In this document: piece by piece, positions 60,001 through 64,000 of the stretch | Layout: every line of letters begins with the position of its first letter | Position numbering within the stretch: position 1 is the stretch's first letter | Assembly: GCF_017348835.2 (NCBI RefSeq) | Contig: NZ_CP071375.1 | Length of the DNA: 64,000 nt | Origin: Escherichia coli | GTDB lineage: Bacteria > Pseudomonadota > Gammaproteobacteria > Enterobacterales > Enterobacteriaceae | Direction: 5' to 3' (one strand) | Position numbers: made by a program

Positions 60001-63000
60001 CCTGGTAGGATTCAATTTTTTTCTTCATCTACTTATCCTGTGTGGAAATGAATTATTAGGATTTGTAATAGCGATGATGCACAGTACATAAAAAGGGATT
60101 ATCGCCAACATGGATATATAAGAGTAGGGGACTACTCTCTTTCTATTTTTAATCTATTATCGTTAAACAATAGATTAAATACGATAAGGTAAGCATCATC
60201 TCTCATAGTGTTTAAATTAACATATTTTTTAATATAAAAAATAAGACTCTGGCTTCAATTGTGCGCGGATTTTCTTACAGGTGTAGGATAATAGCCTTCA
60301 CAAAATAATTATCCGCGCAATTTTCGTGAATGGAGCGCATAGACTAAGGTCAAAATCACAATTATTCATAGATAAAAGTGACACCAATGACTGACTGGAC
60401 GGTTCCGGCTGAAACCTTGTTTCCTGTTTGTCCATAGGTTGCGCTTAAACCCAGAGGTACTTTGCTTTTATTTACTGTCCCCAGGGAGATATTTTCTCCC
60501 GTAGCCAGTATTTTTCCATTACGCATCAGAGAGACACCCACTCCCGATGCTTTTGTTGCATCAGATGCTGTGTTAGCAAACACTTGTCGGGCACTGTCAG
60601 TGGTGGCACCCGAAAGATAAAATGAGAGCTTTTGTTCGCTTGAGCAATATACGCCAAGGGGTATTTCTGCGCTTCCAGGAAAGTCCGGGAGATTCACGGT
60701 GACATTACGACTATCAACAGTGCAGCCGCCTGTTGGCATAACAACACTGTTATTTGAAATAATATTCCACGTAAAATTACGCGGATTTCCGCTTCCTAAC
60801 GTGGCAATTTTATACATATGAATACGGGCAATAACTTCCCCGGCTTTTATGACAACTCCACCGGCCGCCCCGACTGGGGTAATATAGAGTTTTAACGGTA
60901 ATGGCATCGGTGTCTTATCACCAATATCCAATACGTTGGTATTTGTCGTCAACGGGAAGGGGTAGGTCACACTATTCCAGTACAGCGATCCTTTATATGA
61001 CTGTAGGGAGCCTGCGAAAGCTGAGCCTTGTACCAGGTTTATATGATCAGTATCGTACCAGCCGCCGTAATCATTCCAGCAACTTATATGCTGAGACAAG
61101 TCTACAACCAGATTCTGTCCCGGCTGTATTACAGGGTCGAGATTAACATAAACAGAGGTTGTACCTGCTCCAATACTTGACCCGCCATCGACATTACAAC
61201 TGAAGGCAAAAACTTTGCCTGCCATTAATAGAAGATAAATACCGAACAGGACCTTTATACTGATTGTTTTACCCATGATATATCCTAAGGTTAAAAAATT
61301 GATTTAAAAAGAAGGCTAAGAAAATCGAATCGACGTTATTGCCAGGTGTAGATCACATTGATTAGCGCCTCGATCGTTCCCTGGCTTGTGTTTCCATTCA
61401 CCGTGATAGCTCTTGCCTTAAGTGGAAACTGTGCATTACGAGTGATCTCATCAACAATAACCGTTTTGCTATCGCCATTTTTTAACGTCGCATCCTGGTC
61501 ATCCCTCAGCTCTATCTGAATATTTTCGGCAGTACCTTCATTTTTGTAATAACCCGTATTGTCAGTTGAACCTGTCACGATTGCCGTCACTGCACTTGTT
61601 TCAGCCGGACAATCGGTTAATGACAAAGTAATATTGTGCCAGCTAGATGCAGAACCAGGTTGTTGCAGATTGCGCGTATAAAGATCCCCGAGATTAACGT
61701 TAGCTTCTTTGGTTTGAATAGTGCAGGGTTTAGCGACTACCCGACCATTAACAGTGATAGTGACATCGGCGGCCTGGAGAGTTGCTGTGAATAACGCGCA
61801 AAACGTAGCTAACAGGAACCTCTTGTGAAGTCTTTTCATATCTGACTCTGATTATTGAAATTCAAGGGTAAAGGTTGCCGAAGCCCTCACCAGTCCCGGA
61901 TTGACGGACTTCTGAGTTGACTTCAGACGAGCGGAGTAAGGCAAAATATTGTTCTGTTCTGGTACCAGTGGGATCCACTGCATCCCGGCATGAAGGTCAT
62001 TCAATTTCACCGGACGCATATTTCCGTCCAGTATTTCTATACCCAAACCGGAGGCCGTATTGCTTCCTTCATCCAGTTTCAACAGAGTATTATTTTCTGC
62101 ATCCTCAATACCGTTAAATGCAACCCGAACCCCCGTTGTCCCTTTACTGCATTCACTTAACGTAATCTGAAAAGGGACGGCTGGACTTGTGCTACCGGTC
62201 GTTGGAAATTGTCTGGCACTGTTTTTTTGGAGATCTACGGTAAAATTAAGCGAATCCGATGAGACTGTGCAGCCATAATCCAGGACGCGCCCGCTAATTT
62301 TAATAACGCTATCTGCGGATAAAGCAGAATAGGTGGTTAACCCCAGACATAAACCGAGGAAAATAACGTTATTGTATTTCATAATCTATTGTTCCTTAGC
62401 GACAGATTGCTGTCTGCTGGTTCAGCAAGGTTCCAGGAGAGACTTCAGGAAGCTTGTAATCGACAATACAGTTTGAGTTTTTATCATTGCCCCATGAAAC
62501 CTGTAATTTCCCTGACTGTGGAAGTCCAGTCAGATAAACCTGACCATTTTCCGCGACAATGCTGCCATTTTTATTCTCTCCGTGAGTGACAATTGCACCG
62601 AATGGAACGCTTTTATTACCGTACTTCAACGTCATTAATACTTTCCCGCCGATTTGTGCATTAAATGTTGCTCTGGCAATAGCACCGTGAGTTGGGATGA
62701 CAGTGACTACGGTTTCATCCAGTTCAACATTATCTGCAAGGGAATTCGCGTTAAGAGCGACACGATTTTCTCTATATTCTGTCGCAAATGGTAATATTGC
62801 ATAGCCACGCCAGTCGGTATGAATTCCGGTCTGGTTCTCTATTTTGACATTATCAGCGCCAGGAGCCTTAACCAGAACCATTGTGTCGCCCAGCGGCTGT
62901 CCAAAGGTGATGCCATCAGCGTGAGCAATAATCCCACCACTCATTCCGTAATAAATCTGGCTGCTGTCATCACTCCGACTGTAACCGACATTCGTATTAC

Positions 63001-64000
63001 CGTAAGCTCCACGATAATTAAGAGAACTGTAACCACTGGTGCCAGACGATGTATTACCCCCTTGGGTGTTACCGACCTGAACGCTATAATTCAGGTTATT
63101 ATCCGGCAGCAGAGTGCCATAAACCCCTGATAGGTTGGTCATGCCGCCTTTCAAATCGTTTGACATACTGTAACTGGCATTTGAATTACGAAATGCCGAC
63201 TGACTGTCTGTACGCATCCAATGACTAAAGGGAACATTAAGCGTAAAAGCGAGTAAATGATCCCGATCGTTTTGCCATATATTATTGGAATAGCTGTAAT
63301 TCAGCGAAGTCGTAATATCACCAAACGGCACATTTAATCCAAATGATATTTGCTGGTCGCTGCGTGACGTGTTCCAGTAACTTTGGCGACTGGCACTGAA
63401 AAATGTCGTACCGTAATTTCCAAGCTGCTGAGAGATGCTTATTTGTTCCTGACCACGCTTACTGTAGAACAGATTAAAATAATCAATAAATTGTATCTGC
63501 TCATTGCTGTCTCCGGTAGGAGGCTTGACGGTGTAACCACTCATTCGACTGTAGGCACTGTCGGATAAGTTATAAAAACCTTGCGTAGAATAGCGATATC
63601 CTGCGACCTGGATATTGGTTCCTGTCTGGTAGAAGGATTTGCTGTAGACGGATTTAACCGATTGCCCGCTGTGACGGGTGCCATCTGCAAGTGTCGTATT
63701 GGCCTGCGTGATATCGAAAGAAAAGGCACCAAAAAGTCCTAAATCTTTACCAATACCAAGGTTGAAGGCCTGATAATCTTCTGCAATTTGCATTCCGCCA
63801 TAAGGTGTCCAGTTTTCTTTCAGACCATGCATCAAGCTACCTTGTATGAACTTGGGGGAGCTTTGCAGGTTATTTCCACTACGATATTCCCCCATGGCAA
63901 GCGCATAACGCGTATATCCAGCACGTTGGAGAACCGGAACAGACGAATAAGGAACATATAATGTCTGAATACTGCCGTCTGCCTCTTTTATGGTTACTTG

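Follow-up and report, generated by a model that had tools for sequence, protein, structure and literature searches.

The region at positions 60362-64000 of the window (the whole 64,000-nucleotide stretch of Escherichia coli DNA analysed here) very probably belongs to the F9 (Fml/Yde) chaperone-usher operon of the chromosome, of which it would make up the distal two thirds at the 3' end, in the ancestral, undeleted form; we put the probability of this reading at about 0.93. The F9/Fml/Yde operon is exactly the one described by Wurpel et al. 2014 (PMC3966885), and the cluster is therefore a named and characterised fimbria rather than an undescribed cryptic one. A preliminary description of this DNA had envisaged a functional cryptic fimbrial operon; the intact frames and promoter reported below uphold its first element, insofar as they point to function, whereas the notion of an unknown cryptic cluster gives way to the known F9/Fml operon.

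Four genes of the operon, one of them entering the window only in part, could be delimited in the window (Table 1). The usher frame, whose stop codon occupies positions 62396-62398, runs uninterrupted to base 64000, and its 1605 nt comprise 534 sense codons plus the stop, so that the open frame claimed beforehand was confirmed while the figure of 535 codons given for it is reached only when the stop is counted. The encoded part of the usher matched positions 133-549 of the Pfam Usher profile (E=3e-136) as well as PapC_C (2e-22), and the 304-aa YdeQ protein showed a signal peptide (residues 1-24), a lectin domain (residues 25-184; FimH_man-bind, 1.6e-77) and then a Fimbrial pilin domain. The closest solved structure to the usher is FimD (1167 bits), and the closest solved relatives outside F9 are FimF for YdeS (5.3e-39, 136.7 bits), FimG for YdeR (1.4e-59, 203.7 bits) and FimH for YdeQ (279 bits). 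Both the Pfam roles and the nearest solved paralogues, taken in order, thus bear out the earlier remark that usher-ydeS-ydeR-ydeQ mirrors fimD-fimF-fimG-fimH.

Table 1. Features of the F9 operon delimited in the window
Feature	Coordinates	Strand	Evidence
ydeQ = fmlH, two-domain F9/Fml tip adhesin	60362..61276	minus	ORF 304 aa; Pfam FimH_man-bind + Fimbrial
ydeR, FimG-like minor tip subunit	61336..61839	minus	ORF 167 aa; Pfam Fimbrial 8e-11
ydeS, FimF-like adaptor subunit	61852..62382	minus	ORF 176 aa; Pfam Fimbrial 2.7e-22
F9 outer-membrane usher, C-terminal 534 codons + stop	62396..64000	minus	frame open to edge; Pfam Usher + PapC_C
usher stretch missing in K-12, 126 codons	63623..64000	minus	BLAST vs K-12

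The identity of the adhesin was the most specific indication of the kind of fimbria encoded. The lectin domain of YdeQ is identical in 159 of 160 residues to that of the crystallised UTI89 protein (PDB 6AOW and its sister entries, entitled 'F9 pilus adhesin FmlH'), the sole change being the conservative substitution N78S, which falls outside the binding loops 10-15, 44-53 and 132-142. The ligand-contact residues reported from FmlH crystal structures are F1, D53, K132, N140, Y46 and R142 (PMC5866590), and the mature YdeQ keeps F1, D45, Y46, D53, K132, N140 and R142. The genomic site agrees with this assignment. The published F9 locus is flanked by ydeP on its 3' side and by hipBA on its 5' side (PMC3966885); in the window, ydeP (molybdopterin oxidoreductase, 57749-60028) lies directly downstream of ydeQ and is followed by safA and ydeO, and hipA and hipB are found upstream in the two genomes that stand in for the sequence beyond the window edge. 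The same ydeP-hipBA site and the same six-gene order characterise F9/Fml/Yde in CFT073 (c1931-c1936), in UTI89 (Fml) and in O157:H7 (F9), and the F9 operons of O157 and O145 strains share 98.5-99.1% DNA identity with the one studied here.

Given that the window ends inside the usher gene, the 5'-terminal 349 codons of that gene, the genes for the chaperone and the major subunit, and the f9 promoter were read from proxy genomes. Only 2 of 5426 complete E. coli genomes matched the window at 99% or above, namely PE164 (pig, China), which is 100% identical to window 48000-64000 (16001/16001 positions), and F2_81 (pig, Australia), with 3 mismatches in 13001 positions. Both encode, under the same protein accessions, an 883-aa usher, a 236-aa chaperone and a 187-aa major subunit, and these proxies supply the first two genes and the 5' part of the usher gene that complete the F9 six-gene order, the last four members of which are in the window. 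The full-length PE164 usher (gene at L001 14397-17048) contains PapC_N 1-146, Usher 1-549 and PapC_C 1-66, and with them the N-terminal domain, plugged beta-barrel and C-terminal domains of a FimD/PapC-type usher; Usher 133-549 and PapC_C fall within the window. The chaperone carries PapD_N and PapD_C, and the major subunit a Fimbrial domain (Pfam). As far as these proxies are concerned, the chaperone and major subunit that had been expected beyond position 64000 are present just past the edge, and the suggested search there for a chaperone and a complete usher N-terminus yields both. Because the window and the PE164 record are not identical throughout, we infer rather than read its continuation past position 64000, and the sequence evidence makes it a strong inference that the window's own genome proceeds as PE164 and F2_81 do.

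The difference between the window and the PE164 record is located in gadB (window 44187-45656), which forms one open frame in the window and carries 2 extra nucleotides in the PE164 record, where it is annotated as frameshifted. This may reflect an assembly error in the PE164 record; otherwise the window would stem from a sister genome or from a different version of the assembly.

The undeleted character of the operon emerged from a comparison with K-12 (MG1655, NC_000913.3), for which the segment 1588799-1590899 was used as BLAST query against the window and against PE164. The locus order in MG1655 is ydeP-ydeQ-ydeR-ydeS-ydeT, then yneL' and hipA, and the ydeT-ydeS-ydeR-ydeQ remnant thus occupies the same position as the window operon. 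Within the window the alignment was confined to 62342-63622, gapless, with 97.97% identity over 1281 bp, a stretch that spans the beginning of ydeS and as much of the usher as K-12 has kept; the alignment resumed 3279 bp further on, at PE164 L001 18903. The K-12 breakpoint therefore lies between window positions 63622 and 63623 (K-12 junction 1590079/1590080), and the clean 3279-bp deletion, absent from the window operon, corresponds to PE164 L001 15624-18902 and takes with it 1425 nt at the 5' end of the usher gene, the genes for the chaperone and the major subunit, and 178 nt of the leader. K-12 retains the last 408 usher codons; its annotated ydeT coding sequence measures 1149 nt (382 aa). 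The earlier statement that K-12 ydeT is truncated was accordingly correct, ydeT being a C-terminal remnant, but the pseudogene label is not used by the current RefSeq annotation, which names it a 'fimbrial usher domain-containing protein'. A truncation of the K-12 type, in which usher codon ~475 is joined to the f9 leader and which had been named beforehand as the finding that would speak against an intact operon, is rejected within the window itself, since the usher frame extends in frame for 378 nt beyond the breakpoint at 63622.

Survey of the 5426 complete E. coli genomes, in which presence was scored at a coverage of at least 80%, placed these two forms in a population context. Window 60000-64000 was present in 5019 genomes and the 3279-bp segment deleted in K-12 in 3537 (65%), a figure that is based on coverage and is not a count of full-length frames, whereas a 120-bp probe across the K-12 junction was found contiguous in 1381 (25%). 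Most genomes thus share the allele found in the window, K-12 having a common minority allele. The coverage figure agrees with the published share of genomes with intact F9, 60%, the remaining ~40% being disrupted and including all phylogroup A genomes examined (PMC3966885). Approximately 500 genomes fell into neither group, lacking the K-12 junction and retaining less than 80% of the deleted segment, and insertions of IS3 and IS2 within the F9 operon were observed in some strains.

The f9 promoter has been mapped in CFT073, with a -35 element, an 18-nt spacer, the -10 element CATAAT and a G as transcription start 251 nt upstream of the ATG of the major-subunit gene (PMC3966885). The published motif recurs in the proxy genome PE164, outside the window, as TAGTCA-18 nt-CATAAT with a G exactly at -251 (L001 18975). 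Beyond this promoter, towards hipA, PE164 contains an AraC-type HTH fragment (yneL-like, L001 19158-19427). The promoter-proximal end of the K-12 deletion lies 73 nt after the mapped f9 start site (PE164 L001 18903-19011; NC_000913.3 ~1590080-1590190), so that K-12 keeps TAGTCA-18-CATAAT fused to the usher remnant and ydeS-ydeR-ydeQ; the orphan FmlH gene of K-12 could be transcribed from the retained f9 promoter. A consensus scan for promoters and terminators over window positions 59900-64000 returned no more sites than shuffled sequences (6 vs 9.4 expected; 3 vs 3.0), and we consequently claim no internal regulatory element. Covariance models from Rfam, applied at gathering thresholds to the whole window, gave zero matches in 60362-64000. 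Their sole match in the window was SECIS_3 (84.3 bits) within fdnG at 14789-14847 on the plus strand, the signal for selenocysteine insertion that a formate dehydrogenase-N gene is expected to carry.

Expression of F9 in CFT073 is repressed by H-NS and occurs at 20 C, and the fimbriae bound Gal-beta1-3-GlcNAc glycans (PMC3966885). In view of this behaviour, the genes might be intact and yet permanently silent, an H-NS-silenced relic heading for decay as in phylogroup A and contributing nothing to the cell. Such a reading, which we consider improbable, would accommodate the failure to detect F9 at 37 C in wild-type CFT073 (PMC3966885), the disruption of the operon in the ~40% of genomes mentioned above, and the K-12 deletion in 1381 of the 5426 genomes surveyed here. 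Against it stand the six frames, which span ~5.4 kb with neither stops nor frameshifts while a porin gene and ddpA in the same window have decayed, a contrast that argues for maintenance of the operon, together with the conservation of the mapped promoter, the invariance of the FmlH pocket and the published F9 expression at 20 C, biofilm formation and glycan binding of CFT073 (PMC3966885; PMC5866590). Based on the intact frames and the conserved promoter, the operon is predicted to be functional, and the F9 pilus would be expressed and assembled in this strain.

The decayed porin gene is OmpC-like, lies at window 11736-12835 on the minus strand and is split into two ORFs (238 and 102 aa), and the PE164 annotation marks it as frameshifted. 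The ddpA gene (D,D-dipeptide binding protein; window 34460-36010, minus strand) contains an internal stop that leaves ORFs at 34460-35377 and from 35402 onward, and the remaining genes of the ddp operon look intact.

A second alternative is that the operon is disrupted just past the window edge in the source genome, by an insertion sequence, another deletion or a frameshift, in which case the open usher frame would belong to a remnant of a different kind. In its favour are the genomes with neither the K-12 junction nor 80% of the deleted segment, the IS3 and IS2 insertions in some strains, the IS3 element that PE164 itself has in the nearby hipA, and the 2-nt indel in gadB that separates the window from the PE164 record. 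This alternative is nevertheless very unlikely, as the usher, chaperone and major subunit proteins are full-length and identical in the only two genomes that match the window at 99% or above, and as these genomes show a single mismatch between them over the 4.7 kb that follow the window edge. In PE164, hipA (L001 19698-22333, outside the window) is split by an IS3-family element; the gene is intact in F2_81.

The idea that the locus duplicates the mannose-binding type 1 (fim) operon, prompted by the RefSeq labels fimF, fimG and fimA in some genomes and by the Pfam name 'FimH, mannose binding' of the adhesin domain, has a negligible probability and was rejected on adhesin identity and locus, given that the lectin domain scored 360 bits against FmlH and 124-133 against FimH lectin domains, that the operon lies between ydeP and hipBA, that FmlH binds galactosides (PMC5866590) and that no fimI-like or fimB/fimE-like genes are annotated at the locus in PE164 and F2_81. 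The comparison with type 1 fimbriae (fimAICDFGH), which are defined by a mannose-specific FimH at the fim locus, remains instructive for the F9 operon: the two share the class of assembly machinery and a colinear distal order of usher, FimF-like subunit, FimG-like subunit and two-domain adhesin. They differ in locus, in ligand (mannose, whereas the F9 adhesin binds galactosides; PMC5866590), in the fimI and fimB/fimE-type genes, none of which is annotated around the F9 locus, and in the control of F9 by H-NS and low temperature (PMC3966885).

The complete operon would accordingly read, from the hipBA side, f9 promoter, major subunit, chaperone, usher, YdeS, YdeR, YdeQ/FmlH and then ydeP. In chaperone-usher pili of the type 1-like class, subunits cross the inner membrane via Sec and are capped by the chaperone through donor-strand complementation; the complexes so formed are recruited by the usher N-terminal domain, and the usher both catalyses donor-strand exchange and threads the fibre through its beta-barrel. 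By analogy, F9 would be assembled with FmlH first, then YdeR and YdeS, and finally the rod of major subunits, and the FmlH lectin at the tip would bind terminal beta-galactosides such as Gal-beta1-3-GalNAc and Gal-beta1-3-GlcNAc. H-NS would keep transcription silent at 37 C, with release at ~20 C, as in the strains studied. The background here is a pig-associated E. coli lineage, unlike the strains in which F9 has been investigated; that N78S or this background alters F9 glycan preference or expression in a manner relevant to porcine gut colonisation is a far-fetched speculation, and nothing in the data points there.

Other observations were made elsewhere in the window. Between narU and the porin pseudogene, espR1 (leucine-rich-repeat T3SS effector) and an LRR fragment occupy positions 8991-10244 and 10688-10975 of the minus strand, according to the PE164 annotation. 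A seven-gene cluster at 23859-30604, between osmC and ddpF, encodes 3-hydroxybutyrate dehydrogenase, a GntP permease, 3-hydroxyacyl-CoA dehydrogenase, thiolase, CoA-transferase A and B, and a LysR regulator. Since osmC and ddpF are adjacent in K-12, this cluster appears accessory, and it looks like an island for the utilisation of ketone bodies or short-chain acids.

In summary, the feature is real but ordinary: it is the common intact form of the F9 operon, kept by about two thirds of sequenced strains and lost in K-12. Its value resides mainly in correct annotation, that is, in labelling the region as the F9/Fml operon with an intact allele, and its adhesin gene as fmlH, instead of using generic 'fimbrial protein' or fimF/fimG designations. 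The 3279-bp deletion of K-12, now delimited to the base with its junction at window 63622 and present in about 25% of complete genomes, also provides a simple typing marker for the locus. F9 fimbriae contribute to biofilms formed at low temperature, to colonisation of the calf gut, to attachment to plants and to chronic urinary tract infection, and in the light of these documented roles an intact copy constitutes a routine entry in the adhesin repertoire of this strain.
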